Source: an uncultured delta proteobacterium | GTDB lineage: Bacteria > Desulfobacterota > Binatia > Binatales > Binataceae | NCBI GenBank assembly: GCA_963710425.1 | Contig: CAVQAR010000018.1 | Location: 71,506 to 135,505 of the forward strand | Length of the DNA stretch: 64,000 bases | Reading direction: 5' to 3' | Shown: positions 33,142-60,830 of the stretch, piece after piece | How positions within the stretch are numbered: position 1 is the first letter of the stretch | Layout: each line of letters begins with the position of its first letter | Notes under the pieces: generated by a model | Seen by the model: only the letters and a program-made list of their open reading frames with translations | Databases searched by the model: none | What the model was told of the DNA's origin: nothing | Program-made: the position numbers and the translations under genes

Positions 33142-33537
33142 ATGGAGCATTCCGGCATGAAAAAGCTCCTATTTGTAGCATCGAGCTCGGCTCTGTTCCT
33201 GTTGGGTTCCGCTATGGCAGCGTCGAGTGCTGATATCGTGGGCACCATCGTGAATCCGGCAGGCGCGCCAATTGCGGGCATGACGGTCTCGGTCCAGAAT
33301 CAGGCGGGTGCTGCGGTGGGCAGTGGCGTGACCGACACGGACGGCCAGTATGTGATTCACGGCCTCGTCCCCGGGACCTACACTCTGATTTCCAAGGGTC
33401 AATCGGCGGTTGCGTACGTCGGCGACCAGGGTCTTACGGTGGATTGGGGCGTCGCGCCAAATTCCCAGATCATCGCAGCTGCAAGGCAGGGCACGACGGC
33501 ACAGTCAGCGGTACCGTCATCGCCAAACAGTCGATAG
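33142..33537 (+). CDS. small secreted carboxypeptidase-regulatory-like (Cna/prealbumin fold) domain protein
   Basis: Signal peptide MKKLLFVASSSALFLLGSAMA followed by IVGTIVNPAGAPIAGMTVSVQNQAGAAVGSGVTDTDGQYVIHGLVPGTYTL. Confidence 0.7.
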   Translation: MEHSGMKKLLFVASSSALFLLGSAMAASSADIVGTIVNPAGAPIAGMTVSVQNQAGAAVGSGVTDTDGQYVIHGLVPGTYTLISKGQSAVAYVGDQGLTVDWGVAPNSQIIAAARQGTTAQSAVPSSPNSR

Positions 33538-33659
33538 TTTGGTTGCCAAACAGATCGGCGAACGAAATGGCGATCGAAAACGACAAAGATCTCAACAATG
33601 GCGACGGCGTAGGCTTGATCTAGTCGCCCTTAATAGCCGATTATGAGCGCTACAATAGA

Positions 33660-34916
33660 TTGTATAAACGTCGCGTGACGGGTTTGCTGAAATATTTTTC
33701 CAAAGCAGTTTCCTCCGCAGCGGCAATTTTCGCCTTGGCTGGTACGGTGGCGGTTTTCGGCTGCGCATCGAAGGCTCCGGACCCACAGGTGGCACAGGTT
33801 TCAGGCACGCCGCCTATAGCCGACAGTCGCATTCCGAGTTCGGCGAGCTCACCGCAGAACCAGGAGCGGTTGAAGGCCCTGTTTGAAAAGCGGTCCGCAA
33901 AAGACGTGGCATCTACCGATTATCCGGTCGGACCCGGCGACGTTATCGAGATTTCGGTTCCGGGCGTGGACGATCTGAAGGAACGCACGGTCCGGGTGAG
34001 CGGCCAGGGTCAAATCGATCTTCCGCTTATTGGAATAATCCAGGTTGGCGGTCTGACCGAGGGTGAGGTCAGGGACAAGCTGAAAGAAGCGCTCACCAAG
34101 TATATGTACAGTCCGCAGGTGGACGTTTTCGTCAAGGAATATCACAGCCGGCAAGTCGCAGTGGTGGGCGCGGTCCGCGCACCGGGTCTGATCGTGCTGA
34201 CCGGCGCGGGCGAGAGTATCCTCGACGCGATTAGTCAGGCGGGCGGGATGACGGCGGACGCGGCCGACGAAATAGTAGTCCTGCCGCAAATCGAGGGCAG
34301 CCGCACGAAACTGCAGCAGTTGGCGGCGGCATACGAGCAGGATCCCAAGTCGAGCGGCGCGCCGGTCACGGCCGATGGATCGAGAAATGAGCCCAGCCAA
34401 CAGCCGCAACCGGGCATGCCCGACGTCTCTCGCGATACACCCCACACCGGCATCACGCTGGCTTCGCTCGGACAGAACATCAGCAACGGGCCGGCGGTGG
34501 TGATACCGCTGAAGAGCGGAGCGTTTCAGGGCAGCCTCAGCTATACCAACATGCCAGTCGAACCGGGGGACATTATCGTGGTACCCGGAGGCGGCAACGT
34601 CATGGTGACCGGATGGGTTTACAGACCGGGATTTTTTGCGGTCGGATCGGGGCTGACGGTGCTGGGCGCGGTCGGCTCGGCGGGCGGAGCGATGTACGCG
34701 TCCGATGCGTCCTCGGCGACACTGATTCGCAGCGACGGCGCGGGGAACAAGGTTTCGATTCCGGTGAACCTCGAGAAAATTGCGACCGGCCAGGAAGCTG
34801 ACATCCCGGTTCGCGCAAACGACGTTATTGATGTACCGTACTCGGACCTGAAAATCGGTCCCTACGTCGTTTACAACATCCTGACGCGCATGGCAGTACC
34901 GTTGCCCACGTTCTAA
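33660..34916 (+). CDS. wza: outer-membrane polysaccharide export lipoprotein (Wza/OPX family)
   Basis: Lipobox AVFGCAS. Poly_export motif DYPVGPGDVIEISVPGVDDL..VSGQGQIDLPLIGIIQVGGLTEGEV. SLBB repeats (VAVVGAVRAPG.., VMVTGWVYRPG..). Confidence 0.85.
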   Translation: MYKRRVTGLLKYFSKAVSSAAAIFALAGTVAVFGCASKAPDPQVAQVSGTPPIADSRIPSSASSPQNQERLKALFEKRSAKDVASTDYPVGPGDVIEISVPGVDDLKERTVRVSGQGQIDLPLIGIIQVGGLTEGEVRDKLKEALTKYMYSPQVDVFVKEYHSRQVAVVGAVRAPGLIVLTGAGESILDAISQAGGMTADAADEIVVLPQIEGSRTKLQQLAAAYEQDPKSSGAPVTADGSRNEPSQQPQPGMPDVSRDTPHTGITLASLGQNISNGPAVVIPLKSGAFQGSLSYTNMPVEPGDIIVVPGGGNVMVTGWVYRPGFFAVGSGLTVLGAVGSAGGAMYASDASSATLIRSDGAGNKVSIPVNLEKIATGQEADIPVRANDVIDVPYSDLKIGPYVVYNILTRMAVPLPTF

Positions 34917-34929
34917 ACCAAGGAAGTAA

Positions 34930-37320
34930 ATGACTCAGCCCTCGCCATATTTTATTCGTCGAAATCAAGAGGTCATTGCCGAGCCGTTCGACAGCTCGAT
35001 GCGCCGCAATTTTAACGACGAGGAAGAGCGCCAACTCGATCTTCTACGCTACTGGATCACCCTCAGGAAGCATCGCTGGCTAATCCTGGCTATCACCGCG
35101 GCTTTGATGGTGATAGTTGCGATCAAGGTTTCCCTGGCGGTTCCGTTGTACACCGCGCAAGCCACGGTTCTGCTCCGCTCCGATACTCCGCAGCTGCTCG
35201 AGAATCGCTCGCAAGCGAACAATCAGTCCTACGAGTACAGCGACGGTTCCGACTTCGTGAAGACTCAGGTCGAGATCCTGCGCAGCCGCACGCTCGCCGC
35301 CCATGTCGTCCAGGATGAAGGCTTGGCAAATGATCCGGCGTTCACCGGCAAGAGCAGCAAGCCGCGCGAGCATGGAACCCTGACCAGTGCCTTCAAGCAT
35401 TGGCTCGCAGGCGTTTTCGGATCGAAACCAGCTAAGCCGGTTCCGGCCGCGCGACAGCCGGATTCAATCGCGGGCCTGGTTGGCGCTTACCTGGGATCCT
35501 TTCAGATCAAAACGATTCCTGACACCGACATGGTGGATATCATTTTCACCACCACCAACCCGCAGCTCTCGGCGCGGTTGGCCAACGCCCATGCCCACGC
35601 ATACATCCGCGAAGGAATCGAATTGCATACCCAGGCCAATGCCGAGGGTGAGAGATTCCTGCGCGAAAAGCTGGTCGAGCTGAGAGAGAAATTGGAAAAA
35701 TCCGAACTCGCGCTCAACAACTATCGGCGTGACAAAGGAATCGTGCCGGGTCTCATGTCGATGGACGGCAAGGAAACCGTCGTAATCGATCGGCTGTCAG
35801 ACTTGAGTAAGCAGCTGACCAACGCCCAGGTCGCGAGGATCGGACTCGAGGCCGAGGTCGAACAGATCAACAAGCATCAGTTCACGGTAGTGCCGCAAGA
35901 GACGGGCACTCCTGCCGGCGGGGGCCTGGCTACGCAGCTCGCCAGTGCGATGAGCGACTACGCCGCGATGTCCAAGCAGTTCAAGCCCGACTATCCGCCG
36001 CTGGCCCAGCTTAAGGCGCGGATCGATCGCCTCCAGCAGACTGACAACGAAACCACCGAGAAGTACGCCCAAAGCGTCGAGGCGTCCTACGGCGCGGCGA
36101 AGATTAAAGAGGCTGGTCTCCAGGAAGAGTTGAACCGTGTGCGCGCCGAAGCGCTCGGTCTCAATGACGCCTCGGTCGAATACGCCATCCTGCAGCGCGA
36201 AGTTGATACTAATCGCGAGCTCTACAACAGCGTCCTGCAGCGGATGAAAGACGTAGGACTCGCGGCCGAGAGTCAAACCTCGAACACCGTGGTGGTTGAC
36301 GACGCGGTCGCGCCGGGCGGCCCCTCGAGTCCTCATCCGTTGACCGCGATTTTGCAAGCGATGGCTTTTGGGCTGGCGCTCGCGATCGGTTTGGCGTTCC
36401 TCATCGAGTACCAGGACAAGACCCTCAAGACGCCCGATGAAATCGAAGCGTATCTGAGGTTGCCGAACCTGGCCTCAGTACCGTCCTTTGCGCGGGTCGA
36501 GGCGAAGCAGTTCGGCAACGCCAGGATCAACGGCAATGGTACCGCCAATCTCCCGGCGAAAAACCTGGAGATCGCCGGTTCGCTCAGCCGGTACTCGGTG
36601 ATCGGCGAGGCGTACCGCGGGCTTCGGACCGCGTTGATGCTGTCGCGCGCCGGTTCCCCGCCCAAATCCATTCTTATCACCAGCTCGTCGAACTCCGAGG
36701 GCAAGACCGTCAGCGCGATCAACACCGGCGTCGTTTTCGCCCATACCGGCGCCAGGGTTCTGATCATTGATGCGGACCTTCGACGCCCGCGATGCCACAA
36801 AGTACTTGGCATCGAAAATCGCCAGGGGCTGACCGAGGTGTTGGCGGGGACGAATAAAGTCGATCAACTTATCCGCGATACTGGAATCGAAGGGCTCTGG
36901 CTGCTGACCGCAGGTTCGATACCGCCGAATCCTTCGGAGTTGATCGGTTCGGAAAGGATGCGCGAGACACTGGCTAGCATGGTGGTTGAATTCGATCTCG
37001 TGATCGTCGATTCGCCGCCGCTGATGCCGGTGACCGACGCGATGCTGCTTTCGACCATGGTTGATGGCGTGGTCCTGGTCGTCAACTCCAAGAAGACCGC
37101 CAAACAACTCGCGCGGGCGGCGCTGGCGCGGCTCGAATTTGCGCGGGCCAAGCTTTTCGGCGTGCTGCTCAACGAAGTTGACGTGAACAGTCCGCATTAC
37201 CGGTACTACAGTTCGTATCACGGCGGTTATGGTGATTATCATCCGTACACCTCCGACCCCGCCGATCAGGCCGATCCCGATCAGGACATCGCGGCCGAAG
37301 AGCCAAAACTCAACACCTGA
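34930..37320 (+). CDS. wzc: polysaccharide co-polymerase with C-terminal BY-tyrosine kinase (Wzc/GumC/EpsB type, PCP-2a)
   Basis: Wzz-like N-terminus with TM, a coiled-coil and a second TM. Walker A SSSNSEGKT, VLIIDADLRRP, DLVIVDSPP, and a C-terminal Tyr cluster HYRYYSSYHGGYGDYHPY. Confidence 0.9.
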   Translation: MTQPSPYFIRRNQEVIAEPFDSSMRRNFNDEEERQLDLLRYWITLRKHRWLILAITAALMVIVAIKVSLAVPLYTAQATVLLRSDTPQLLENRSQANNQSYEYSDGSDFVKTQVEILRSRTLAAHVVQDEGLANDPAFTGKSSKPREHGTLTSAFKHWLAGVFGSKPAKPVPAARQPDSIAGLVGAYLGSFQIKTIPDTDMVDIIFTTTNPQLSARLANAHAHAYIREGIELHTQANAEGERFLREKLVELREKLEKSELALNNYRRDKGIVPGLMSMDGKETVVIDRLSDLSKQLTNAQVARIGLEAEVEQINKHQFTVVPQETGTPAGGGLATQLASAMSDYAAMSKQFKPDYPPLAQLKARIDRLQQTDNETTEKYAQSVEASYGAAKIKEAGLQEELNRVRAEALGLNDASVEYAILQREVDTNRELYNSVLQRMKDVGLAAESQTSNTVVVDDAVAPGGPSSPHPLTAILQAMAFGLALAIGLAFLIEYQDKTLKTPDEIEAYLRLPNLASVPSFARVEAKQFGNARINGNGTANLPAKNLEIAGSLSRYSVIGEAYRGLRTALMLSRAGSPPKSILITSSSNSEGKTVSAINTGVVFAHTGARVLIIDADLRRPRCHKVLGIENRQGLTEVLAGTNKVDQLIRDTGIEGLWLLTAGSIPPNPSELIGSERMRETLASMVVEFDLVIVDSPPLMPVTDAMLLSTMVDGVVLVVNSKKTAKQLARAALARLEFARAKLFGVLLNEVDVNSPHYRYYSSYHGGYGDYHPYTSDPADQADPDQDIAAEEPKLNT

Positions 37321-37374
37321 TCGGGTCCTCCGCGAGCCTCTCTCCCACTCCGGGAATTCCAAATCGTTACATCC

Positions 37375-40279
37375 GTGCAAAAACTGGATCGCCTGGCTGC
37401 CGGCGCAATAGTAGTTCTCCTGATCGCCAGCCCGCTGGCGTTCGGCAGCGTCCATCCGTTGGCGTATGGTCCGATGGAGGCGGTGCTGTTCGGATTGGTG
37501 ATCGTGTGGATGGTCAAGCGCGCGTCGCTGTCGCGTTCGTCTGACGCATCGGGCGGCGCCGGTGCTTTCGCGGGCGGAAAATTCGCACTTGCGATCGCCC
37601 TGTTCACCGGCTTCGCGCTGGTGCAGTTGACTCCGTTGCCGCCGGCCGTCGTTCGCGCGCTGTCACCAGCGGCCTACAATTTGTACGTCGAAACGCTCGA
37701 GGGCTGGCCGGGTGTCGCCCCTTACCAGCGCGTTGATACAGTCCCCCAGACTCAGACCGCTTCAGCGCCGGCGCTGGTAATCCTGCCGACCCGGGAACAG
37801 GTGCAGCAAGGAGCGCCAGTTCCGTTTGCGCCCGCGACTCACGCGACCGCCGCTTCATCGAAAGCGCTCGACCGACGCCGCCCTCAATCAACCGCCGGCA
37901 GTATCGACCTTGGCCGCCTCCATCTACGGATCGCGATGGCGTCCATTATCGATCGCGCCATTGCTGACCTGGTCGGCATTGCTGGCGATACTCGCATGCG
38001 CATCGGGCTTCATGTTCGTCGCTTACTATCCGTTCGCGGAGCAGCCGGACTCGCGCTCCGACTCTCAATTTCTGCGCGCAATATTGCTCGCCATCATCGC
38101 GGCCGGATTACTGGTAGCGTTCGTCGGCATCGTCGAGCGTGCGACCTGGAACGGAAAGATGCTCTGGTTTTTCGTTCCGTACGACTGGGGGCAGGCGATG
38201 TTCGAGCCGTTGCCGCGTGCGCGCGGGCCGTTCGTGAATCCCGATCATTTCGCCGGATACCTCGCGATGGTCTTTCCGTTGACCCTTGCGTGCGCGTTGT
38301 TTCCGAATCTGCTGACCCCGCAACGCGCTCCGCTGGCTTTCAGAATCACATGCGCAGTGGCCGCGTTCGTAATCCTGGTCGCTGTGTTGTTGAGCTTGTC
38401 GCGCGGAGGATGGCTCGGTCTCGCCGTCGGGTCGGCTGTCATGCTGCTGCTCGCGACGCCGCGTGGGATTCGCATTGCCCGGAAAACTGCGCACGAAAAG
38501 GATCCTGAACCCAATCCTGAGCGTCAGCTTTTGGCCTTCGCCCGATCGAACCGATTGAGACTGGCGCTGGCCGGCGGCGCGATGGTGGTCGCAGTGGCGC
38601 TGCTCTTCGTCGGCCCCGACGCGAGGTTCGACGCGGCGCTGCGCGTTCATGACTCAGTCTCCTCGGACTACACAATTCTCGACCGAATCTCGGCCTGGAA
38701 GAGCGGTCTCGCAATGTTCCGTGATTTCCCGCTCGCGGGCGCCGGTCTGGGCGCGTCACCTGAAATTCTTCCCCGCTACCAACTCCCGCCGTGGACGGAA
38801 TTATATTTCAACCACGCGCATAACGACTATCTCGAGCTGATGGCGGAAACCGGAATCGTCGGGACCGCCTTGTTCGCATGGTTCGCATACCTCCTGATCG
38901 ATCGACTCAGGCGCGGTGCCCGCTGGCTGACTCCGGCGGTGACGCCGGCATACGCGGGAGTGGTCGGCGGGATTGCCGCCATGTGCATGATCGATTTGTT
39001 CGATTTCGATCTGCGCATACCCGCGACTGCGCTGCTGTTCTCGGTTCTGCTCGGGCTCGCGATACGCCTTGGCAAGACGCCCGCCGCGGAAAGCGAGAAA
39101 ACCAATCGCCGCTCGCGCGCCTTCGGTCCCCTCGCATTCGGCGTATCACTCGCGGCAGTAGTTCTAATCGTCGCCGCGATGAGTCAGGGCAGTATTGTCT
39201 ATCCCTACAATCTGACGCAGCCGCAGAATCTCGCGCAGGCGCGCGCCCTGTTGAGCACCTATCCCGCCAATCGCTTCTCCCACTTGTCGCTGATTGCCCT
39301 CGAGGGCGACGCGATGACCGAATCATTGCGCCAGGCCGAACTTCAGCGCGCGGTCTGGACCGATCCGATCGATCCAACTACCCGCGATCGATACGCGCGA
39401 GCGCTCATGGTGGCGGGAAAACGCGACGACGCGCTCAAGCAGCTCGAGATCTCGATAGAAAACTCACCGGCGCTGCGAACCCATCCTTATCTCGACCCGC
39501 GCCTCCTAATCTGGCTGCCAGTTGCGGATAGGAAAGCAATCGAAGCCGGATTGGTCGAGGCGGTTAGCCGCGGATACCTCTACGCGCCCGACGCTCTCGG
39601 CGAATTCTACCGCGCGTTCGGCCGCTACCCCGACGCGGCGAAGATGTACGCCGAGGTTGCGTCGCGCGAACGCGATCCCGACAAGCGCGCCGAGTACCTG
39701 CGAGAATCGGGCGAAGCGTATGCCCATAGTGACTTCGCGCAGGCGATGGCGAAATTTCGCGAGGCGCAGGATCTCGCGCCCGACAATTCGCTCATCTACT
39801 GCGACATGGTCACGATGGTCATCGGGCCGCATCGCGACTTCAACCTCGCCCATAAAACCATCGCACAGGGTATCGAGAACGGCGCGGACCCCTTCCAGCT
39901 CTGGACCGCTCTGGCAGACGCTTCCGAGGCTGCCTTCGATCGCTCGCGGGCGGAGTCAGCGCTCGAGCAGGCGCTGAAGTATCAGCCCAATTCGTTTCCA
40001 ACATTGATCCGGCTGGCCGACCTTTATGTCCTGGATGGGAGGTCGGATCGCGCGGTCGCTACGATCGACCGGGCGCTCGAGATCGAGCCGGATTCCGCGC
40101 CGCTGTATTCCCGGCTTGGGCAGATTGAAGAAAGTCAGTATCACTACTACGCCGCGGAGCAGGCCTATCGCAAAGCCGCCGCCCTGGCGCCGGACAACCG
40201 CCAGTATCGCGAGGCGGTCGCGGAGTTCGGGCGCAAGCTCGACGCCGCCGCCGCGGCGACCAAATCACAGGCGCATTGA
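37375..40279 (+). CDS. O-antigen ligase/Wzy_C-family membrane protein fused to C-terminal TPR domain, frameshift within 37830-37900
   Basis: The N-terminal TMs are in ORF 37375..38508. The rest is in ORF 37826..40279, with LLSLSRGGWLGLAVG, GAGLGASPEI and NHAHNDYLELMAETGIVG, followed by TPR repeats. Confidence 0.8.
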
Positions 40280-40303
40280 CTCGGTGCCAGTCGTTGCCGT
40301 CGG

Positions 40304-41561
40304 ATGAAAATCCTGTACTTGAATCCCTCCGGGGTTTTCGGTGGCGCGGAGCAGAGTCTGCTGGACGTCATTGCCAGCGTGGGCGCGGCGCGGCCCGATT
40401 GGAATCTCTCGCTTATCGCCGGCGGCGACGGACCGTTGCTTGAACGCGCGCGCGAACTGGGAATCGCGGCGACAGTCGCTCCGATGCCCGAGTCGTTGGC
40501 GCAAATCGGTGACGCGGGCGTCGCCGGCCCCGCGGGAACCCAAGTCGGAAGATTTTCGTTGGCGGCGTCGATGGCGCTCGCCGCGGCTCCAACTGTCTTC
40601 TACGCGCGGTCGCTGCGCCGCAAGATCAACGCACTCTCGCCGACGTTGATTCACACCAACGGCTTCAAGATGCACCTGCTCGGAGCATGGGCCGCCGGCA
40701 AGACTCCGGTTATCTGGCACGTGCACGACTACGTGAGCATGCGGCCGGTCATGGCGCGATTGATGCGCCTGCGAGCACATCGATGCGCCGCCGCGATCGC
40801 CAATTCCAACAGCGTCGCCGCCGATCTTCGCGCGACCTGCCCGGACCGCAGTGGGGCGGGCCGCCGTGCCCGCCATCGACATTTCGATATCACCACCGTT
40901 TACAACGCGGTCAACCTCGATCGCTTCAAACCAGACGGCAATGTCGCTCCGACTCGATGAACTCTCCGGGCTCTCGCCGGCTCCGCCCAACACTATTCGC
41001 GTGGGACTGGTTGCGACTTTCGCGCGATGGAAAGGGCACGAAGTATTTCTGCGCGCGCTCGCGGCGTTGCCGGCTGGCGTATCAGTCCGCGGATACATAG
41101 TTGGCGCGCCCGTGTATCAAACGCGTGGCAGCCAATATTCGATGCCTGAACTGCGTGCGATGGCGGCGCAGCTCGGACTCACCGGTCGAGTCGGTTTCAC
41201 CGGATTTGTTGACGATGTGAGCGCTGCGATGCGCGCGCTCGACATCGTGGTGCATGCGAGCACACAGCCGGAGCCGTTCGGCCTGTCGATAATCGAGGCG
41301 ATGGCGTGCGGCAAGCCGGTGATCGCGAGCCGCGCGGGCGGCGCCGCGGAAATCGTCGAAGCGTCGGGGGGCGCGCTGTTTCATAGTCCCGGCGATGCGG
41401 CTGACCTGGCGAATCGAATCGCACAACTGGCCGGCGATTCGGCCAAACGCCGATGCCTGGGATGCGCGGGGCGGGCGGCCGCCGAACGATTGTTTGCCCG
41501 GCCACGGCTCGCGCAGCAACTGATCCAGATTTACGAACGCGTCGCGAGTGCGAGGGCCTGA
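40304..41561 (+). CDS. GT-B (family 4-like) glycosyltransferase, frameshift near 40945
   Basis: MKILYLNPSGVFGGAEQSLLD (ORF 40304..40960), followed by VGLVATFARWKGHEVF..QPEPFGLSIIEAMACGKPVIASRAGGAAEIV (ORF 40851..41561). Confidence 0.85.
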
Positions 41562-42715: not shown

Positions 42716-43393
42716 GGTTTCATCTGGCGGACCAGCACGCACAACAGGTCACCCGGATACTGATTCGGAAACATGCTGGCCAATAAGGCGGCTACCATCC
42801 GGGGCGCAAGCCGCGAACCTGATCCACCGACCGGCGGATAAGTCCATCGCTGGACCGTCTCGAGGCCGTAGCGCGGCAGCAATCGATCGAGGCACGTTAT
42901 AAAAACCGGGTAGATATGGGTGGGTTCGAATGGAACATTTGTGCGATCGAAACCCGCGAGCTTTCCCGTGATCGCAAACCTCACTCTCGCGCGCACCGAA
43001 TGGACATTTGGCGTCGTCAGGAGGAAGTATCCGTCGGCGGCAAGATGGCGGCGCACGTGACCCAGTAGATGCCCCGGATTCTCCATATGCTCGAGCACCT
43101 CGATTGCGGTTATCAGACCGAATTTGGCGTCGCCGAGACCGAGATCCGAGATTGTCGAGGTCAGCCTGCGAGCAGGTGTACCCACTCCCTGCTTCCATGG
43201 GAACCATCGATCCGTTATCGACCCCGCGCAGGTCAGTGAATCCGTGACGCGCCAATCGCGCGAGCCAGGCTCCGCTGCCACAGCCGAGATCAAGGACGGG
43301 GGTCTGCAAGTCGATGCCTGACAGGGTTGCAAGCTTCACCAGCAAGGCCTCGTGCAAGCCCGCCAGCGTCAACTCGGCCAAATCTTCAGCCAT
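42703..43393 (-). CDS. class I SAM-dependent methyltransferase, frameshift near 43210
   Basis: VLDLGCGSGAWLARLARHGF is in ORF 42749..43393. FGLITAIEVLEHMENPGHLLGHVRRHLAADGYFLLTTPN is in ORF 42703..43332. Confidence 0.8.
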
Positions 43394-43490
43394 AGATCAA
43401 GTTAGAACCTGACTGTTAACAAAGACGATTCAGAATCAACCAGATTATCGCCCGTACTGAAAGAATTGTCGAAGCCCACGCGGCCGGAGC

Positions 43491-44986: not shown

Positions 44987-44987
44987 G

Positions 44988-45824: not shown

Positions 45825-45844
45825 ATAAGTGAGAACGTAGTTTC

Positions 45845-48377: not shown

Positions 48378-48387
48378 GTAACCAGCA

Positions 48388-49256: not shown

Positions 49257-49264
49257 TTTTCACG

Positions 49265-50614: not shown

Positions 50615-50620
50615 AGACGG

Positions 50621-51823: not shown

Positions 51824-52665
51824 TGCGATCATTGCGCCCTCGCCCCGGACGTTGGTGGAATCTTACAAAACTGTCGCTGCGCGACGCGACCTTCCTCCCG
51901 CCGCTGATTGGTATCGCGACGAATTGGCGCGAAGTTTGGTCCGCACGCGCGAGCCAGCACGCGCCGCCCGTTCGCCTGCGCAATGGTCAGACTGTCTTTC
52001 ACTCCGGCTACGGCTGGGAAGTGATTGGCCTCCTGAATGAGGTTCACCACGTTCGCATCTACGATCAGGAACTCGGCGATTTCATCGACGGCGGAGTAAT
52101 CGTCGATATCGGCGCCAACATCGGCGTCGTCACCATGAATTATCTCTCGCGCTATCCGAATGCGACCGTACAAGCATACGAACCGAATCCGCGGACCTAT
52201 CGGATTCTGGAACAGAATATCGCGGCACAGATCTCTTTCCGGTCGCGCGCGCCTGTGGAACGAAGCGGTCGGCAGGAGTCCGGGAACAATAAGCTTGACC
52301 AGCGCAGGACCAAGCACGTTGTTCAGCGCATACACCAAAGCCGAAAACCCCGCCGAAGTCGTGGAAGCTCGCTTGATCGACCTGGATCAGGTTGTGCGAC
52401 GATGCGAGTCATACGGCAAACCAATCAAAGTTGTAAAAATAGATACCGAGGGAGCCGAAGCGGATATTCTCGAAGGAGCCGCTGAATTCCTCACTGCAAA
52501 TGGTTTCTCAATTTGTGATCGAGTACCACGATGCGTTCGTGCCCGGTGCACGATCGCGCTGCATTGCTAGGCTCGAGGACGCCGGGTTTCGATGCAGGTG
52601 GCGGCCAATCGCGAGCCAGCCAGGTGTCGGGATGATCTACGCGGTGAATCGGAACGCATTCCTGA
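51823..52665 (+). CDS. FkbM-family methyltransferase, frameshifts near 52232 and 52495; 3' end unresolved
   Basis: VIVDIGANIGVVTMNYLSRYPNATVQAYEPNPRTYRILEQNI, then RLWNEAVGRSPGTISL..KVVKIDTEGAEADILEGA (ORF 52160..), then QFVIEYH (ORF 52500..). The ATG overlaps the previous stop (TGATG). Confidence 0.7.
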
Positions 52666-52694
52666 AAGATCTCGGTCCCGCTAAAAACTTCCGC

Positions 52695-53827
52695 TTGCAG
52701 CATTGGCACATCATAACCGGCGGCTATCCTCCGCAGCCCGGTGGAGTGAGTGACTATACGCGTCAGGTCGCAGTTGAACTGGCGCGCGCCGGCGACGTGG
52801 TGAACATCTGGGCTCCCGCTTGTGGACATGGCCGATCCGATCGATGCCGGCGTCGCGGTGCATCGCTTGCCCGGCCATTTCGGACCGCGCGCGATCGCGC
52901 TTCTCGATCGTCAGCTCAACAGGAACCCGGCGCCGTATCCTGGTGCAGTACGTGCCGCATGCGTTTGGTTTCAAGGCGATGAACTTTCCCTTCGTCTCAT
53001 GGCTGTACGCGCGACGCCGCGCGAATATCTCGGTCATGTTTCACGAGGTTGCCTATCCGGTCGATCCGTCGCAGTCGCTCAAACACAACCTGCTCGGTGT
53101 GGCGACGCAAAAGATGGCTGCGATTGTTGCGCGAGCGGCCGGCCGAATCTTCGTCTCCACTTCTTCATGGGAATCGCAATTGCGCGCACTTTCCGGAACT
53201 GCAAAACCAATCGTATCGATTCCGGTTCCGAGCAATCTCCCAGTGGTCGAAGATTGTATGGCGGTGCAGGCTATACGACAGCGCCACTGGCCGGTCGAAG
53301 GACCAATCGTCGGACATTTCGGAACCTACGGCGACAGCATCGCCAAACTGCTCGACCGAATTCTTCCGGCGGTACTTGTCGATGTCCCGCACGCGTCGGC
53401 GTTTCTCATCGGACGCAACAGCGAGGTTTATCGCGAAAGATTGATCGCCACGAATCCACAAGTTGCCCGCAGAATTGCCGCGACTGGAATGCTCGGAGAG
53501 CGCGACGCGTCGGCGCACATCAGCGCCTGCGATTTGATGCTGCAACCGTATCCCGACGGCATCAGCACGCGGCGCACGAGCGCGATGGTCGCTCTAGCGC
53601 ACGGGCGCGCGCTCGCCACCACCTCGGGCCATCTGACCGAATCGCTATGGGCAGAGAGCGGGGCAGTCGCCATCTCGCCGCTGAATGAACCGCTCGAGAA
53701 TGCCCGTCTGGCTAGCAGCATTCTGCTCGACGCGCCGCATCGCCAGCAGCTTGGTTCGGCCGGCCGCGCGCTTTACCGCAGTCAGTTCGACATCAGTAAT
53801 ACCGTTGCAGCGTTGCGTGCTGCGTAA
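52695..53827 (+). CDS. GT-B glycosyltransferase, frameshifts near 52815 and 52932
   Basis: Starts at a TTG, (M)QHWHIITGGYPPQPGGVSDYTRQVAVELARAGD. Continues as VDMADPIDAGVAVHRLPGHFGP (ORF 52822..), then RRILVQYVPHAFGFKAMNFPF..GHFGTYGD..QPYPDGISTRRTSAMVALAHGRALATT (ORF 52820..53827). Confidence 0.7.
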
Positions 53828-55092
53828 TGCGTATCGCGGTTGCAAACTTCAGCTCGCGCCGGGTTGGAGGCGCTGAAAGTTACATCGAGGAGGTCATCGC
53901 CGAGTTCGCCAACTCCGGCCATGACGTCGGTCTCTTCGTCGAACTTGATGTCCCAGCCGATCGCGCTGCGATTCGGCTCCCTCGCGAATCGCCGCTATGG
54001 TGCGTCGCGAACGAATCTATGACTGGCGCGCTCGCTGCGATGCGCGAATGGCATCCCGATCTGATCTTTGCGCATGGATTAGTTAGTCCCGAGAATGAAG
54101 CCGCGACGTTGTCGGTCGCTCCCAGTGTGTTCTTCGCGCATGGGTACTACGGCACCTGCATCTCCGGCGCCAAGACCAATAGCTTTCCGAATGTCGTTCC
54201 GTGCACGCGGATCTTCGGTCCCAAATGCCTTCTGCACTTCTACCCGCGGCGCTGTGGAGGGCTGAGTCCCGTCACCGCGTTGATCGAATACCGCCGCCAG
54301 GCAGATCGCCTCAAGCTGCTTCGAAGTTACCGCGCAATACTCACTGACTCGACGCATATGCGCGAGGAATATCTCCGCCACGGGTTCGATCCCAACATAG
54401 TAATCAGGAGTTCGTACCTTCGGGATACAAGCCCGGGCCTGGATGTCTCGATCGAATCGGCGAATCGCGACACCAACGGTACCGCATCCGGCGGCCCTGC
54501 GCGGCTGTTGTTTCTCGGACGAATGGATGCGCTCAAGGGCGGGTTGATACTGTTGGACTCCTTGCCGATAGTCGCGGCTGCACTCGACCGGCCGATAGAA
54601 CTGACGTTCGGCGGCGACGGCCCATGTCGCGATTCGTGGGCCCGTCGCGCGCAATCAATCAGCGCAAAAGACACTCGCGTGAAGATTGTGTTCGAGGGAT
54701 GGTTGGGAGCTGAACGCATCGCGGAACTCCAGGCTTCATCAGATTTGCTCGTGATGCCCAGTTTGTGGCCCGAGCCGTTCGGCCGAGTTGGTCTCGAGTC
54801 GGGATCGAAGGGCCTGCCGGTCGCCGCGTTCGCGGTCGGAGGAATCCCGGACTGGCTGCACGACGGAGTCAACGGCTACATGGCAGTCGGCGATCCGGCA
54901 ACTTCTGACGGTCTGGCGGATGCGGTCGTAAAATGTCTCCGCTCGCCGGCCGAGCACGCGCGACTACGTCGTGGCGCAATCGCTATGGCAAGCCGTTTCA
55001 ATCTGCACAATCACATGGCGCAGCTTTACGATCTCTTTGAGCAGGTCGCTGGACGTTCAGTGTCCGGCGAAGCCGAGATGTCATCGCATTGA
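53827..55092 (+). CDS. GT-B (family 4-like) glycosyltransferase
   Basis: 421 aa: MRIAVANFSSRRVGGAESYIEE..LLFLGRMDALKGG..WPEPFGRVGLESGSKGLPVAAFAVGGIPDWL. Confidence 0.85.
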   Translation: MRIAVANFSSRRVGGAESYIEEVIAEFANSGHDVGLFVELDVPADRAAIRLPRESPLWCVANESMTGALAAMREWHPDLIFAHGLVSPENEAATLSVAPSVFFAHGYYGTCISGAKTNSFPNVVPCTRIFGPKCLLHFYPRRCGGLSPVTALIEYRRQADRLKLLRSYRAILTDSTHMREEYLRHGFDPNIVIRSSYLRDTSPGLDVSIESANRDTNGTASGGPARLLFLGRMDALKGGLILLDSLPIVAAALDRPIELTFGGDGPCRDSWARRAQSISAKDTRVKIVFEGWLGAERIAELQASSDLLVMPSLWPEPFGRVGLESGSKGLPVAAFAVGGIPDWLHDGVNGYMAVGDPATSDGLADAVVKCLRSPAEHARLRRGAIAMASRFNLHNHMAQLYDLFEQVAGRSVSGEAEMSSH

Positions 55093-56291
55093 TTTCCGAC
55101 GCTCGCGAATCGCGACTACGAGTATTGTTTTTCGTTGAAGGCTTTACCGACATCCGCTTCGTGATCGGACTCAGCGAGCTTTGCGACCTCACAATGGTCG
55201 TGCCGGAACGGCAATACCTTGAAAGTGGGCTCAAGGGACGAATCGAGAGCGCCGGTTGCCGGATCGATGTAATAACTGTGCCGGGCGGCCGGCCGGCTTT
55301 TCAATTTCGCTCGCTGCGACGCCTCTGGTCGCTCGCGCCACGCTTCGACGTAATCCTTGCGCAAGAGGTTCTGCGCGGCGCCCTCAATGCCAACATCGTT
55401 GGCACGATTCGAAGGGTCCCGGTGGTAACGTACATGTGCGCCTCTCCGCTGGAGTATTTCCGATGTCGGCGCGAACGCGTGCAGATTTCAGCTCCCATTT
55501 CATTATTGGGCCAGTCCGTGATCTCGACCTTGATGACTGTGAATGGAAAGCTCGCGACTCAATGCGTGGCGATGGGGCGCTACCTTGCCGGCGTCGCGGG
55601 CAAATATTGTTCGACCGTTAGCGTCGGGCTCTACTATGGAATCGATACCAACGTCTTCCGCCCCGTGACAGTGGCCGAGCGCTCTCAGCTTCGTGAGCGT
55701 CTCGACCTCCCGCTCGATAAATTTATCGTCTTCCTTTCAAGTCGAATCAGCCACGAGAAGGATCCCGAGACGGTTTTGCGCGCGGTTTCGATTGCCCGCC
55801 GCAACGGTCTCGACGCGATTCTGCTCAATCTGGGCGGCGGTTTCCGCGACTTCCTGAATCTCGCCCACGAACTCGGACTTCCAGATGTCGACCGCTGGAT
55901 TATCGGGCGTCCCGCCGCGAATCCGATTACCGAGGTTCATCGTTTTTTCCAGGCCGCCGACGCGACTGCTCTCGCTTCTCTGGCCGAGGGTCTCGGAATT
56001 TCTCCACTCGAGTCGCTTGCCTGTGGCACTCCCGTCGTCGCTACCGCTGTTGGCGGGATGGCGGTGGAACTGGAGGGTTATGCCCGCCTGGTTCCGCGCC
56101 GCGATGCGGAAGCGATGGCGCGCGAGCTTTTGTGGATTGCCGCAAATCGCGAGGCGGCCAGCGCGCAGGCGCTGAAGGGACGCGATCACGTTGTGCGCGA
56201 GTGGCGCCGCGAGAAGGCATTCGCCGATTTGCTGGCTGTGCTCGAATCTGTTTCAGGGTTGCGTCAACAATCAAATCTCAAGAGCGCGTGA
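55089..56291 (+). CDS. GT-B (family 4-like) glycosyltransferase
   Basis: 400 aa: ..FIVFLSSRISHEKDPE..LAEGLGISPLESLACGTPVVATAVGGMAVEL. 4-nt overlap with the upstream gene. Confidence 0.85.
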   Translation: MISDARESRLRVLFFVEGFTDIRFVIGLSELCDLTMVVPERQYLESGLKGRIESAGCRIDVITVPGGRPAFQFRSLRRLWSLAPRFDVILAQEVLRGALNANIVGTIRRVPVVTYMCASPLEYFRCRRERVQISAPISLLGQSVISTLMTVNGKLATQCVAMGRYLAGVAGKYCSTVSVGLYYGIDTNVFRPVTVAERSQLRERLDLPLDKFIVFLSSRISHEKDPETVLRAVSIARRNGLDAILLNLGGGFRDFLNLAHELGLPDVDRWIIGRPAANPITEVHRFFQAADATALASLAEGLGISPLESLACGTPVVATAVGGMAVELEGYARLVPRRDAEAMARELLWIAANREAASAQALKGRDHVVREWRREKAFADLLAVLESVSGLRQQSNLKSA

Positions 56292-56304
56292 TAAGGTCTC
56301 GCAA

Positions 56305-57078
56305 TTGATTGAAGGCGTTCAGACCGGGCATTACGCTCGCAAGCAAATCTTTTCCCGCAGCGCGATTGTTGCCTGGAGCCATCGCAGCCGCTTTCGGTAT
56401 GCCCGCAAACTAGTCGAGCCGTACGCCGGCCGCCGCCTGCTCGACTATGGTTGCGGTGACGGCACGTTCCTCGCGCAAGTCTGCGATCTGTTCCCGAATG
56501 CAGCAGGCGCCGACGTCGATTCGCGCCAGAACGACGACTGCCGCAAGCGCTTCGCCGCGCATCCCGGGATTTCATTTCTTTCAATCGACGAACTCGAGCA
56601 ACCGGCTCATCGCGGCCGCTACGACGTCGTGACCTGCATGGAAGTACTCGAGCATTGCATTCCGGAAACGACTGAAAAGGTGATCGGCGACTTGCGCCGG
56701 CTGGTTGCGCCGGGTGGAACGGTCGTCATCAGCGTCCCAATCGAAATTGGACCGACCTTGCTTGGCAAGCAGATGATCAGAGCGCTCGCGGGATGGCGTT
56801 CGATCGGCGACTACAAGTTCCGCGAGAAATACACCGCCGCCGAGCTTGCCACGATGCTGCTCGCGGATGAAGGGACTGCAATTCAGCGTCCGATCCATCC
56901 AGCACCGGATGGCAGCCAGCCGTCTCACGGTCACAAGGGATTCAACTGGCGGGCGCTGCGCCATCGGCTGCAGGACGAATTCGAAATCAGAACAACACGT
57001 TTCTCTCCGCTAGAGTTCCTGCGTGGCTATGCCAGCAGCCAGGCGTGGCTGATATGCGCGCCGCGTCCTCGCAGCTAG
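56305..57078 (+). CDS. class I SAM-dependent methyltransferase
   Basis: [57 protein letters not shown]. Start tentatively at TTG 56305 (the tracked ORF starts inside the previous gene). Confidence 0.8.
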
Positions 57079-57082
57079 TCAG

Positions 57083-58261
57083 GTGCAAGCCAAACCCCGG
57101 GTCGCCGTCATTTCCGATTTCATCGAGGAAGGATGGCCGAGCATGGACCTGGTCGCCGAGATGCTGTGCGATCACCTGGCCCGTGACCATGCAAAATGCT
57201 TCGAGGTCGAACTGGTGCGGCCGCGTTTCATCTGGCCTTCGAGCCATCGCAGAATCACGAACGAACGATGGATCACCGCGGCAAGACTGTTTAACCGCTT
57301 TGCGGTTTACCCACGATGGATCTCGCGCAATCGATCGCGCTTCGACATTTTTCATATTGTCGATCACAGCTACAGTCACTTGATTCATCATTTGCCGGCC
57401 GATCGATGCGTCGTCACATGCCACGATCTCGACACCTTCAAGTGTCTGCTGGAGCCGGACCGTGAGCATCGTTCGTGGGCCTTTCGCGCGATGACGCGGC
57501 GAATCTTGGGAGGCTTCCGTAAAGCCGCCAGGGTGACCTGCGTTAGCAGCGCGACTCGCGACGACATCGTCAGGCGCGGACTTATTCCGAGCGATCGCCT
57601 GGAAGTGGTGCCCAACGGTGTGCATCCGATCTTTACTGCGGTCGCCGATCCCGATGCAGACGCGGAAATTTGCAGGCTTCTCGGACGACGTAACATCGGC
57701 TCGATCGAAATATTGCACGTCGGAAGTACCCAGCCGCGCAAACGAATCGATCTGCTGCTCAGAATCTTTGCGGCGGTGCGTGCGAACCATCCCGGCGCGC
57801 GGCTGGTGCGCGTCGGAGGCGGCTTGACGACGCAGAATCGGAGTCTTGCCGAACAGCTTCACGTATCGGACGCGATCACGATCCTTCCGTTTTTGGAATG
57901 TCGCACGCTTGCTGCCGCTTATCGAAGGGCGGACGTTCTCGTGCTGCCATCGGACGCGGAGGGCTTCGGACTTCCAATCATCGAGGCCCTGGCCTGTGGT
58001 GCTCCGGTGATAGCCAGCGATCTGCCCGTTCTGCGCGAGGTCGGTGGCAACGCGGTGCGCTACTGTGCAGTCGGTGACGTGGACGCGTGGAGTAGTGCGA
58101 TCATCGACGTGATTCGCGAGCGCGATGCCAATGGCGATGCCCGTCTTGAAAGACGCGCCCGCGCAACCGCGCATGCGTCGCGATTCAGTTGGAGCGCGAA
58201 TGCCGAGCACGCGGCGCACACCTATCGCGAGTTACTGGATCGCGCGAAACCGCGCACCTGA
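57083..58261 (+). CDS. GT-B (family 4-like) glycosyltransferase
   Basis: 392 aa: ..[48 protein letters not shown]. Confidence 0.88.
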
Positions 58262-58275
58262 CAAGCAAGGACTCG

Positions 58276-59370
58276 GTGCCTGACGCCCATCTCCGCGTAG
58301 TTCATCTTGTACCGCAGCTGTTTGGCGCGCACGACGCAGTTTATGGCGGCGCCGAACGATACGCACTCGAACTCGCGACACACATGGCGGAGCGCGTCGA
58401 CACTATCCTGCTGACCTTCGGCGACCGCGCTCGCGAAGAGACCATCGGCAAACTACGCGTCAAAGTAATCGGCAATCCCCACCATGTACGCAATCAAAAG
58501 AACAACATGCTTGCATGGGGCCTGTTCCCGCAGTTGCGGCGCGCGGACGTCGTGCACTGCCATCAGCAGCACCTGCTCGCGAGCAGCCTCGCCGCCCTTT
58601 ACTGCCGGATGAACGGGCGCAAGGTGTTTGCCAGCGACCTCGGCGGCGGCGGCTGGGACATCTCGAGCTACATTTCTACCGACGCTTGGTATCACGGTCT
58701 GCTTCACATCAGCGAATACAGCCGAATGATCGCAGGACATGAAAACAATCCTCGCGCGCACGTGATCCTTGGCGGCGTCGATACGCGGAAATTTTCCCCC
58801 GCGCCTTCGATCAATCCTCGCGACTACGTTCTTTTCGTCGGCCGGCTCCTGCCACACAAGGGAATCGATAATTTGATTCGCGCGATGCCCGACGACCTCG
58901 AGCTTCAGATTATTGGACAAGCCTACGACCAGCGTTACTTCGACGACCTCGCGCGTCTGGCCGAATCCAAGCGCACGATCTTTCGCCGCGACTGCGACGA
59001 CGCCCAATTGATCGACGCCTACCGCGGAGCGCTCTGCGTCGTGCTGCCAAGCGTCTATCAAACCATGTACAACGACTATTCCCCGGTACCTGAACTCCTG
59101 GGCCAGACCTTGCTCGAAGGGATGGCGTGTGGGGTCCCGTCGATATGCACCAGGGTCGCGAGCATGCCCGAAATTGTCGACGACGGAGTAACCGGGTTCA
59201 TCGTGCCTCCGAACGACCCGGCCGCATTGCGCGAGAAGATCTCTTGGCTGCGCAATCATCCCACCGACGCCGCGGCGATGGGCCGTCGCGCGCGTGAACG
59301 CGTGCTCGACAAGTTCACCTGGCCGCAGGTGGTAGATCGCTGCTTAACGATCTATGACGCCGCACAGTGA
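58276..59370 (+). CDS. GT-B (family 4-like) glycosyltransferase
   Basis: LRVVHLVPQLFG..YGGAERYALELA..VLFVGRLLPHKGIDNLI..LLEGMACGVPSICTRVASMPEIV. Start tentatively at GTG 58276. Confidence 0.85.
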   Translation: MPDAHLRVVHLVPQLFGAHDAVYGGAERYALELATHMAERVDTILLTFGDRAREETIGKLRVKVIGNPHHVRNQKNNMLAWGLFPQLRRADVVHCHQQHLLASSLAALYCRMNGRKVFASDLGGGGWDISSYISTDAWYHGLLHISEYSRMIAGHENNPRAHVILGGVDTRKFSPAPSINPRDYVLFVGRLLPHKGIDNLIRAMPDDLELQIIGQAYDQRYFDDLARLAESKRTIFRRDCDDAQLIDAYRGALCVVLPSVYQTMYNDYSPVPELLGQTLLEGMACGVPSICTRVASMPEIVDDGVTGFIVPPNDPAALREKISWLRNHPTDAAAMGRRARERVLDKFTWPQVVDRCLTIYDAAQ

Positions 59371-59549
59371 CGTGCGCGGTCTACGCGAATGTTAAATTCA
59401 CGTAGCACAATTGACGTACAGGTCGATCCCCTGCCATCATTAGTAACAGAGAAGTTCCGCTCTCTTTAGAATCGCCGGAAAGATGCTCAGATAGAAGGGG
59501 CCGCAGCGCTCCTTCACTGTCTCCGGGGGCTTAATTTTCGCTGTCTGAG

Positions 59550-60830
59550 TTGATCGATTTCACGAAGCGGCGCCGCCGCGAGACCTCAACCAACGGTCTC
59601 GACGGCGGTATCATCTTAAAGCTTTCTGGGGCAACCTTGGGCCACCCGCAAAAACTAAGCGTTCTCCACATTGGCAAGTTCTATCGGCCTCATCTCGGCG
59701 GTATTGAGACACATGTCGAATCGCTTTGCCATGGATTGCGCAAATCGATGGACGTGCGCGTGCTGGTGGCCAGCAACCGCCGGTACCGCGAGAACAGCGT
59801 GATCGACGGGATTCCCGTAACCCGGGTTCACGTCCCTGTGACTATCGCCGGCGCCCCAATCTGTCCGGGCATGGTTGGACAGATTCGCAAGAACCGCCCC
59901 GACATCATCCATCTTCATCTGCCAAATCCCACTGGTGTCCTGGCAGTGCTGGCTAGCGGATACCGGGGACGAGTCGTCGTCACCTGGCACAGCGACATAG
60001 TGCGCCAGCGCCGGCTCGCCCGCCTGTATCGACCGATCGAACGGATTTTACTCAACCGGTGTTCCACGATCATCGCTTCTTCGCCCGCTTATATTGCCAG
60101 CTCGCCGGTGCTCCGCGAACACGCCGATCGATGCCGCTCGATCCCGTTTGGAATCGACGCGGAGAAATTCGACGTCCGTCACGTTGACCAGGCGCTGCTT
60201 CGCGATCTGCGCGATCGCTTCGGACCGAGAATGATCCTGTCAGTCGGACGACTGGTCTATTACAAGGGAATTCAGTTTCTTATCCAGGCGATGGCGAAAG
60301 TCGACGCCAAACTGGTGATTATCGGCGAGGGACCGATGCGCCCGTCCCTCGAGCAGGAAGTGGCAGCGCTCGGAATCGCCGACCGGGTTATCTTTCTCGG
60401 CCGGGTTCACGACAATCTCACTACCTATTTCCACGCCGCCGACGTCTTCGCGCTGCCGTCTTGCGAACGCAGCGAGGCCTTCGGGATAGTTCAATTGGAA
60501 GCGATGGCGTCCGGTAAGCCTGTGATCAACACGCAGATCGATTCGGGCGTTCCGTACGTATCCCTCGACGGGATCACCGGTATCACGGTCGAGCCAAGAA
60601 GTTCGGAAGCGATGGCCGCGGCCCTGAACCGGTTGTTTGACGACCCCGAGTTACGACGACGGATGGGGCAAGCCGGCCGTCACCGGGTGCAAACAGAATT
60701 TAACCTCGACCTGATGGTGCGGCGGACGATGGAAATATATGAACAAGTCGGTGCGAGAGAGATAAGCGCCCATTTTGAAAGCAACGGGGCTGCGCGAGGC
60801 GAGTTTACATCGCATGTTGCAATGCGATAG
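59550..60830 (+). CDS. GT-B (family 4-like) glycosyltransferase
   Basis: LSVLHIGKFYRPHLGGIETHVESL..ILSVGRLVYYKGIQFLI..RSEAFGIVQLEAMASGKPVINTQIDSGVPYV. The true start may lie downstream of 59550. Confidence 0.85.
   Translation: MIDFTKRRRRETSTNGLDGGIILKLSGATLGHPQKLSVLHIGKFYRPHLGGIETHVESLCHGLRKSMDVRVLVASNRRYRENSVIDGIPVTRVHVPVTIAGAPICPGMVGQIRKNRPDIIHLHLPNPTGVLAVLASGYRGRVVVTWHSDIVRQRRLARLYRPIERILLNRCSTIIASSPAYIASSPVLREHADRCRSIPFGIDAEKFDVRHVDQALLRDLRDRFGPRMILSVGRLVYYKGIQFLIQAMAKVDAKLVIIGEGPMRPSLEQEVAALGIADRVIFLGRVHDNLTTYFHAADVFALPSCERSEAFGIVQLEAMASGKPVINTQIDSGVPYVSLDGITGITVEPRSSEAMAAALNRLFDDPELRRRMGQAGRHRVQTEFNLDLMVRRTMEIYEQVGAREISAHFESNGAARGEFTSHVAMR

Follow-up and report, generated by a model that had tools for sequence, protein, structure and literature searches.

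A polysaccharide locus of Candidatus Binatus that combines Wza/Wzc and two Wzy_C-family proteins with a Wzm/Wzt exporter

Genes of the locus

The window analyzed here is a stretch of 64,000 nucleotides (positions 71,506 to 135,505, forward strand, of contig CAVQAR010000018.1, assembly GCA_963710425.1) from an uncultured soil member of Candidatus Binatus (Binataceae, phylum Binatota). At 33.1–60.8 kb it carries a hybrid polysaccharide locus, in which the export lipoprotein Wza, the tyrosine-kinase co-polymerase Wzc and two Wzy_C-family proteins are encoded together with Wzm/Wzt, an ATP-binding cassette (ABC) exporter. Scans with Pfam and NCBIfam and a listing of the open reading frames (ORFs) confirmed these parts along with 10 glycosyltransferase genes of family GT4, four methyltransferase genes (three of the S-adenosylmethionine (SAM) type and one of the FkbM type) and a polytopic, weakly PMT_2-like (GT-C-like) protein. 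The parts list of the original prediction, which was made from the sequence alone, was thereby upheld. In related genomes the place of wzm/wzt is often taken by a flippase of the MOP (multidrug/oligosaccharidyl-lipid/polysaccharide) family. We give about an even chance to the reading that the locus encodes a single surface-polysaccharide pathway, in which the ABC exporter would replace the flippase Wzx and feed the Wzy_C/Wzc/Wza line.

Frameshifts interrupt about 10 of the 22 locus genes as they read in the window. The original prediction had called for their repair; as we judged the frameshifts most likely to be assembly errors (see below), the annotation was redone on the intact proteins of L019 (MFD10064.bin.1.24, 1.15-Mb contig). 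The alignment of L019 to the window covers 21.3 kb and has 90.4% DNA identity; the gene order is unchanged in L019, where each locus gene is a single open frame.

The locus opens with a small secreted protein similar to CarboxypepD_reg (prealbumin fold; PF13620, 49.5 bits; 33142–33537, plus strand, as are all genes below unless stated). A similar small gene lies 5′ of wza in L030 and L032. Next come a Wza-type lipoprotein of the OPX family (33660–34916; Poly_export and two SLBB domains, lipobox VFGC) and Wzc (34930–37320), a polysaccharide co-polymerase of class PCP-2a with a bacterial tyrosine kinase (BY-kinase) and a C-terminal tyrosine cluster. Wzc matched Wzz, GNVR and the P-loop kinase family AAA_31, and with 186 bits it exceeded the cut-off of TIGR01007 (NCBIfam). 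The Walker A′ and Walker B motifs of its kinase are intact, as is the tyrosine cluster, HYRYYSSYHGGYGDYHPY, with 8 Tyr in 18 residues. The following gene (37375–40279; Wzy_C 79 bits; frameshift near 37867) encodes a Wzy_C membrane protein joined to a tetratricopeptide repeat (TPR) solenoid of ∼350 aa, here called WzyTPR, which is intact in L019 as a 1013-codon open frame from stop to stop. Two GT4 genes recognized by Pfam complete the conserved head (40304–41561, frameshift near 40952, and 41453–42715).

The body begins with a SAM methyltransferase on the minus strand (42749–43393; Pfam; frameshift near 43149), the PMT_2/GT-C-like membrane protein (43491–44986; weak PMT_2 match; frameshift near 44110; 524 aa and intact in L019) and a second minus-strand SAM methyltransferase (44988–45824; Pfam). 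The GT-C-like protein has a paralogue at C24:151785-153293, with 78% identity over 503 residues. The second Wzy_C-like protein, Wzy2 (45845–47179), scored 29.8 bits against Wzy_C, just below the Pfam cut-off of 31.7, and lacks the histidine discussed below. Between it and the translocase lies a third GT4 (47210–48377; Pfam; frameshift near 47449), which adjoins the translocase in most relatives too. The translocase consists of the ABC-2 permease Wzm (48388–49256; Pfam, NCBIfam; frameshift near 48948) and the ATPase Wzt with a C-terminal carbohydrate-binding domain (49374–50614; Pfam, PDB match; frameshifts near 50095 and 50307).

Downstream of wzt we found a fourth GT4 (50621–51823), an FkbM-family methyltransferase (51652–52690; PF05050, 43.8 bits in the intact L019 orthologue; frameshifts near 52228 and 52488) and a GT4-like gene with several frameshifts (52690–53827). 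The latter two are separate adjacent frames in L019 (15936–16826 and 16827–17930), and the read-through from FkbM into the next glycosyltransferase in the window (52500–52982) is an indel artefact. The remaining genes, all recognized by Pfam as was the fourth GT4, encode GT4 enzymes five and six (53827–55092 and 55089–56291), a SAM methyltransferase (56191–57078), GT4 enzymes seven and eight (57083–58261 and 58189–59370) and a terminal GT4 with the Glyco_trans_4_2 signature (59550–60830). A GT4 of the same Pfam signature closes the locus in G006 and on the P0057 contig.

The original prediction described one co-directional block. This does not hold here, as the two minus-strand methyltransferase genes divide the plus strand into three transcription blocks; it does hold in the relatives L021 and L032, where wza to wzm/wzt form a single co-directional run. 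A scan of 42–51 kb for promoters and terminators gave no signal beyond shuffled expectation. The upstream 21 kb of the window hold housekeeping genes (Obg, an exonuclease, an ABC ATPase, lipoamide dehydrogenase). Upstream of the locus we also observed a secreted protein of 912 aa (25434–28172, plus strand) with a pectate-lyase/epimerase-like beta-helix (PF12708). Similar PF12708 proteins adjoin Wza in L031 and occur near Wzy2 in L027, and the one in the window may modify or degrade the glycan and move together with the locus.

As originally predicted, the window contains no MOP flippase (PF01943, PF13440, A2 profile), no primer transferase of the Bac_transf or WecA type and no nucleoside diphosphate (NDP)-sugar synthesis genes. 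The last absence is not odd in itself, since GT4 enzymes often use common donors such as GDP-Man, UDP-Glc and UDP-GlcNAc. Two membrane proteins considered as cryptic flippases, the one at 28794–30491 and the GT-C-like protein, were rejected as unrelated to the A2 flippase profile (hhalign probability 0.1 for the latter). A six-frame search of the whole 4.3-Mb assembly detected three MOP flippases (C13, C14 and C18:23.5 kb), four Bac_transf genes (C13, C14, C18:18 kb and C10) and two PF00953 genes, both on C9. The original prediction had named a flippase and a primer transferase just outside the window as a finding that would refute it. None was found there; the nearest pair lies 80–86 kb upstream in a separate, apparently self-contained locus. 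All three wzx genes sit 1–6 kb from a Bac_transf primer transferase, and those on C13 and C14 have a Wzy_C gene 4–15 kb away and an OPX-like gene 9–10 kb away. The three other Wzx loci of the genome thus look self-contained.

The primer transferase is absent from the window and present in the genome. In G006 and on the P0057 contig, a protein of ∼630 aa with WecA-type PF00953 and CoA_binding_3 domains is encoded convergently at the 3′ end of the locus. The orthologue of this WecA-like PNPT enzyme of G006 in our genome is C9:348644-350482 (minus strand; 57% identity over 601 residues), surrounded by dehydrogenase and protease genes, suggesting that the “missing” initiating enzyme is probably this unlinked gene. 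In these proteins (∼612–636 aa; C9:348644-350482, L010:5856-7766) the WecA-type transferase continues into a fused C-terminal part that holds additional membrane segments and CoA_binding_3, an architecture that we do not know from characterized WecA or WbpL enzymes.

Gene order and translocase in related genomes

To compare the locus between genomes, homologues of Wzy2, the TPR-fused protein and Wzt were located in 30 relatives and their neighborhoods were inspected; for many of these loci the synteny rests on ORF lists and Pfam. The order Wza–Wzc–Wzy_C/TPR–GT4–GT4 … Wzy_C#2–GT4–translocase recurs in about 20 Binataceae loci, so the mixture noticed in the original prediction is not a chance adjacency. 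Eight loci have Wzm/Wzt as their translocase, and 11 have a MOP (Wzx-like) flippase of ∼530 aa.

Within the genus, 12 of 19 genomes have the TPR-fused protein. The ABC variant was found in five of these 12 (G000, G004, G011, G015 and G017), with the order Wza–Wzc–Wzy_C/TPR … Wzy2–GT4–wzm–wzt; the short contig of G011 covers only Wzy_C/TPR onward. The same order occurs in L019, in the Binataceae metagenome-assembled genome L021 and in the NCBI assembly locus L032. Across the eight ABC-variant loci, Wzy, PCP-2a and OPX are all kept in the same locus. In the five genomes of the genus, Wzt carries its binding domain wherever the C-terminus was read.

The other seven genomes (G003, G006, G007, G009, G012, G016 and G018) have the MOP variant. 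In six of them a polytopic protein of ∼530 aa is encoded 3–17 kb downstream of the TPR protein, and in G018 it is on another contig. The protein also comes after Wzy2–GT4 in the metagenome loci L025, L026 and L028 and on the P0057 contig. Its profile matches the teichoic-acid flippase 9xzn (E 6.8e-7), it has weak matches to PF01943 and 11–12 hydrophobic segments, and a distant member in a Bryobacterales locus (L022) matches PF13440. Based on these matches, we assign the ∼530-aa protein as a MOP flippase.

No A2-type flippase was detected anywhere in the ABC-variant genomes searched (G000, G004, G015 and G017), and no Wzt was detected in the MOP-variant genomes at E ≤ 1e-30. Wzm/Wzt and the MOP flippase are therefore mutually exclusive in the 12 congeners with the locus. 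A 527-aa protein in L031 turned out not to be an A2-type flippase, and for this reason L030 and L031 were left out of the tally.

A maximum-likelihood tree of Wzy2 places the clade of the window among MOP-variant loci with 100/100 support, and a second ABC clade, apart from it, unites G015 and G017. This topology implies at least two translocase switches. Compared with G000/L019, G011 shows 84% identity in Wzy2 and 92% in the TPR protein, and only 62% in Wzt when compared with L019. This contrast points to recombination at a cassette boundary.

The gene directly after Wzy_C/TPR in G004 encodes a homologue of asparagine synthase (AsnB-like, 634 aa; L013:4321-6225). An asparagine-synthase homologue, wsfA, is also listed for the S-layer glycan locus of Paenibacillus alvei (PMC2943079).

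The two Wzy_C proteins and the exporter

The original prediction counted two Wzy-like proteins. Both belong to the Wzy_C family, and they differ in kind: one is of the ligase type, with a histidine motif and a TPR domain predicted to be periplasmic, and the other is His-less. WzyTPR, which is 36–52% identical across the genus, is encoded directly after Wzc wherever the upstream side was read. It carries the motif HNDYLELMAETGIVG, fitting H[NSQ]X9GXX[GTY], which from the WaaL literature we take to be the periplasmic ligase motif of WaaL and PglL. Its Asn is invariant among 25 homologues, and its His nearly so. Only one sequence homologue has a solved structure, the O-oligosaccharyltransferase 9rmk, whose stretch FTHSHNIVLQLLAEMGISG aligns to HNDYLELMAETGIVG across the HN. 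The AlphaFold model of WzyTPR (pLDDT 79) has four helices between the HN loop and the TPR solenoid, which would place the TPR domain in the periplasm.

Wzy2 has 1719 homologues, and the proteins of this family are ∼445 aa long. At the site of the motif it reads ENEYGRILLETGIPG, without the ligase His, and E340 is invariant in 32 homologues. The divergent second Wzy_C of the MOP-variant genomes G007, G009 and G016 has a Glu at the same site. Elsewhere in the genome, a conserved Wzy_C protein of 451 aa (C18:3794-5146) has the His motif and is a better candidate for the O-antigen ligase WaaL than Wzy2, and the Wzy_C proteins 4–15 kb from the C13 and C14 flippases are without it. Judging from this distribution, ligases would be of the His type and polymerase-like enzymes of the His-less type. 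Structure prediction, proposed originally as a means to tell polymerase from ligase, did not separate the two: the best PDB match of the Wzy2 model was WaaL (7tpg), a weak one (E 4e-4, TM 0.45–0.48), and the Foldseek matches of WzyTPR were swamped by TPR proteins.

The identity of the exporter was confirmed by the intact L019 orthologues, which scored 81.7 bits against PF01061 (Wzm) and 77.7 bits against PF00005 (Wzt). NCBIfam Wzm/RfbD and Wzt/RfbE were among the top matches of the exporter. The permease scored better as an O-antigen-type Wzm than as KpsM. The best PDB match of Wzt was the full-length WzmWzt of Aquifex (8dku, E 4e-65). Its Wzt_C domain scored 39.2 bits in L019 (cut-off 30.4) and 40.6–46.2 bits in G004, G017 and G011, and it is on record for L032.

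A second polysaccharide group lies outside the window at C10:78-98 kb, with a Bac_transf primer (C10:78499) and GT4 genes. Here a His-less Wzy_C-like gene (C10:92576-94024, minus strand) is followed by GT4–wzm–wzt (C10:94.9-97.4 kb). The C10 Wzm is 63–71% identical to that of the window and the nucleotide-binding domain of Wzt 59% identical; no binding domain was detected in the C10 Wzt, where the tblastn matches stop at Wzt residue 261. A matching pair of Wzy_C-like and Wzt genes lies on a second contig of G004, and a second Wzt is present in G017.

A possible pathway and its relation to known systems

The original prediction left two readings side by side, two glycans made from one locus or an ABC-exported polymer handed to a Wza/Wzc-type channel. 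The comparative data favor the second, as the MOP flippase of the congeners occupies the wzm/wzt slot and the two exclude each other. A single pathway is the simplest account of the conserved head, the cassette-like body and the either/or translocase. The individual biochemical steps, and a link between the ABC exporter and Wzc/Wza, are inferences from the gene identities, conservation, slot exchange and motifs described above.

The pathway of Candidatus Binatus would then consist of a fixed head and a cassette-like body. The conserved head comprises the small secreted protein, the outer membrane channel Wza, the co-polymerase Wzc, the His-motif Wzy_C/TPR protein and two GT4 enzymes. The variable body comprises the His-less Wzy_C, a GT4, one inner-membrane translocase and the tailoring GT4 enzymes, methyltransferases and acyltransferases. 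The translocase slot is filled either by a MOP flippase or, as here, by Wzm/Wzt with a carbohydrate-binding ATPase. Undecaprenyl phosphate would be primed by the unlinked WecA-like transferase on C9, and the glycan would be built by the GT4 enzymes and O-methylated by the SAM and FkbM methyltransferases in the cytoplasm. The binding domain of Wzt would recognize the glycan, and Wzm/Wzt would move the lipid-linked glycan over the inner membrane, the step taken by Wzx in the sister loci. Both Wzy_C proteins would act in the periplasm, the His-less one probably by joining units and the TPR protein of the His type probably by passing the product on to an acceptor or as a scaffold for export. Export would finally occur via Wzc and Wza. 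More tentatively, and with a probability clearly below even, we propose that Wzm/Wzt and Wzx are natural interchangeable cassettes, that the ABC-2 exporter delivers undecaprenyl-linked units to a Wzy-type polymerase and Wzc/Wza, and that the periplasmic TPR-ligase adds an attachment or scaffold step.

Several points weigh against a single pathway. Here, wza/wzc belong to another transcription block than wzm/wzt. Homologues of Wzy2 occur without Wza/Wzc within 10 kb in L023 and L027, and the C10 group of Wzy_C-like, GT4, wzm and wzt genes is likewise without Wza/Wzc; Wzy_C plus an ABC exporter may therefore be a self-standing module. To our knowledge, the only systems known to use a Wzt of this kind, with a binding domain, export finished, capped polymers and need no Wzy polymerase. 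The tally of 8 ABC and 11 MOP loci is a modest sample and not an exhaustive survey, and the evidence is entirely comparative genomics of uncultured bacteria. PCP-2a kinases have been described only with Wzy-dependent routes, and PCP-3 proteins with ABC routes (PMC12220298).

We consider it unlikely, although well worth weighing, that two glycans are made from this neighborhood. The body would then be an O-antigen-type ABC pathway comparable to E. coli O8/O9a with WecA priming, in which Wzy2 ligates the product to lipid A-core or another lipid, and Wza–Wzc–Wzy_C/TPR would serve a different polymer with a flippase elsewhere, in a layout like that of Klebsiella, where the cps and rfb loci adjoin each other. 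This would fit the binding domain of Wzt, which is typical of capped O-polysaccharides, and the presence of FkbM and SAM methyltransferases. External WecA-type priming, for which the C9 gene is available, is the norm for ABC O-polysaccharide pathways. The C10 group, the structural match of Wzy2 to WaaL and the minus-strand genes that split head and body here point the same way. However, Wzy2 is without the ligase His and has an invariant Glu instead, the His-motif protein on C18 is the better WaaL candidate, and orthologues of Wzy2 are found in plain MOP-type loci. Two separate pathways would also mean that in ABC-variant genomes the head has neither a flippase nor a polymerase to itself, and those of these genomes that were searched are without a MOP flippase of the locus type. 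Furthermore, head and body stay linked and co-directional over about 20 loci, down to 36–47% identity.

Still less probable, in our view, is that the main product is a glycoprotein. WzyTPR would then be an O-oligosaccharyltransferase of the PglL/WsfB type that attaches a methyl-decorated glycan, exported by the ABC system or flipped by Wzx, to proteins that are secreted or lie at the surface, much as in the S-layer glycan pathway of Geobacillus. The alignment to 9rmk across FxHxHN..LLAE.GI.G and the predicted periplasmic location of the TPR domain would agree with this, and small secreted prealbumin-fold proteins flank the locus. PglL and WsfB have a C-terminal TPR motif, and a TPR protein is encoded beside WsaB (PMC2943079). 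On the other hand, the most conserved partners of WzyTPR are Wza and a full BY-kinase Wzc, which are hallmarks of high-molecular-weight polysaccharide export, and TPR domains also act as scaffolds in such export. No acceptor protein was identified, and six-frame translations of the genome contained no PEP-CTERM tails. A link to PEP-CTERM/exosortase systems was likewise unsupported, with only sub-threshold NCBIfam matches to XrtA-associated families.

The frameshifts would agree with a decaying pseudogene array, its mixed content left over from two former loci, but we reject this as very improbable because most of the breaks prove to be insertions of one base when compared with L019, in which every gene is intact, and because many genomes carry intact versions. 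The alignment to L019 has 29 gaps, mostly single extra bases on the side of the window. Protein identity to L019 in the broken genes, at 93–98% (93% for Wzy_C/TPR, up to 98% for Wzm, 95–99% for Wzt), exceeds the DNA identity. The completeness score of the genome, 65% at 4.3 Mb compared with >90% for congeners of similar size, fits indel errors throughout the genome. Errors of assembly, for the most part single inserted bases, are thus the most likely source of the frameshifts. The gene-breaking insertions (window 37325–54023) often lie 1–3 bases before GAT(C)/CGAT contexts, for instance CCG[A]CTCGAT, CCG[A]GAT, TCG[C]GATGG, GCA[C]AGATC and ATG[G]CCGATC. This pattern resembles what systematic errors of base calling close to a methylation motif would leave in a long-read assembly, and it would account for the completeness score.

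Literature searches for a pathway with PCP-2a and Wzm/Wzt, or for polysaccharides of Binatota, found no direct precedent. Each part is known, and the conserved combination with a natural alternation of MOP and ABC-2 translocases is undescribed in the literature searched. The locus resembles the Wzx/Wzy-dependent group 1 capsules (E. coli K30, Klebsiella cps) in the Wza lipoprotein, in a PCP-2a Wzc with kinase and tyrosine cluster, and in a conserved export head followed by a variable region with transferases, a Wzy_C-family protein and the translocase. It differs from them in that it has an ABC-2 exporter in the slot of the MOP flippase, no WbaP/WcaJ gene and an extra conserved His-motif Wzy_C/TPR protein; no Wzb phosphatase was seen in it.

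With the ABC-dependent O-polysaccharide route (E. coli O8/O9a; Aquifex aeolicus WzmWzt, PDB 8dku/7k2t) it shares Wzm, a Wzt with binding domain, GT4 enzymes, methyltransferases and WecA-type priming encoded away from the locus. It departs from that route in that wzm/wzt stand here together with genes for Wza, for a Wzc with BY-kinase and for two Wzy_C proteins, and in that their slot alternates with a MOP flippase between the congeners. The logic of an ABC exporter passing polymer to a trans-envelope PCP/OPX conduit is that of the group 2/3 capsules (KpsMT-KpsE-KpsD), except that here the co-polymerase is a PCP-2a with complete BY-kinase and not a kinase-free PCP-3 of the KpsE type. KpsS/KpsC families were absent among the Pfam and NCBIfam matches of the locus products, although no dedicated genome-wide search was made.

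ABC export of a methylated glycan, as predicted here, is found in the S-layer pathway of Geobacillus stearothermophilus (Wzm/Wzt, the methyl-capping WsaE, the Wzy_C transferase WsaB and the TPR protein WsaA; PMC2943079), and this pathway and the PglL-type O-oligosaccharyltransferases (9rmk) likewise associate a His-motif Wzy_C transferase with TPR repeats. That system is Gram-positive and without OPX or PCP, whereas the Binatia locus has a second, His-less Wzy_C. The loci examined here indicate a large uncharacterized family of proteins with a His-motif Wzy_C and a TPR domain predicted to be periplasmic, encoded directly after Wzc.

There is an experimental parallel for one and the same step being performed by either an ABC transporter or a MOP flippase, as PglK and Wzx are reportedly interchangeable in flipping lipid-linked oligosaccharides (Campylobacter/E. 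coli complementation). PglK is an MsbA-like half-transporter and was tested by experiment, whereas the swap in Binatia is natural, concerns the ABC-2 exporter Wzm/Wzt and is read from synteny. A single genus thus shows a natural exchange in which the export head and both Wzy_C proteins are kept and the translocase is either MOP or Wzm/Wzt, never both. If the parts work together, the translocation step would be modular, a tyrosine-kinase co-polymerase would be able to work with an ABC exporter, and pathway assignments in metagenomes from marker genes would need care. As the organisms are uncultured, the value for now lies in a testable hypothesis and in intact sequences for reconstitution.

The textbook routes have fixed part lists: Wzx/Wzy with PCP-2a and OPX, an ABC exporter with PCP-3 and OPX, or an ABC exporter with WaaL. 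If Wzm/Wzt and Wzx are indeed interchangeable cassettes, the Binatia locus would represent a further assembly route, one for which neither the division into Wzy- and ABC-dependent routes nor the rule that PCP-2a goes with Wzy and PCP-3 with ABC export would hold.

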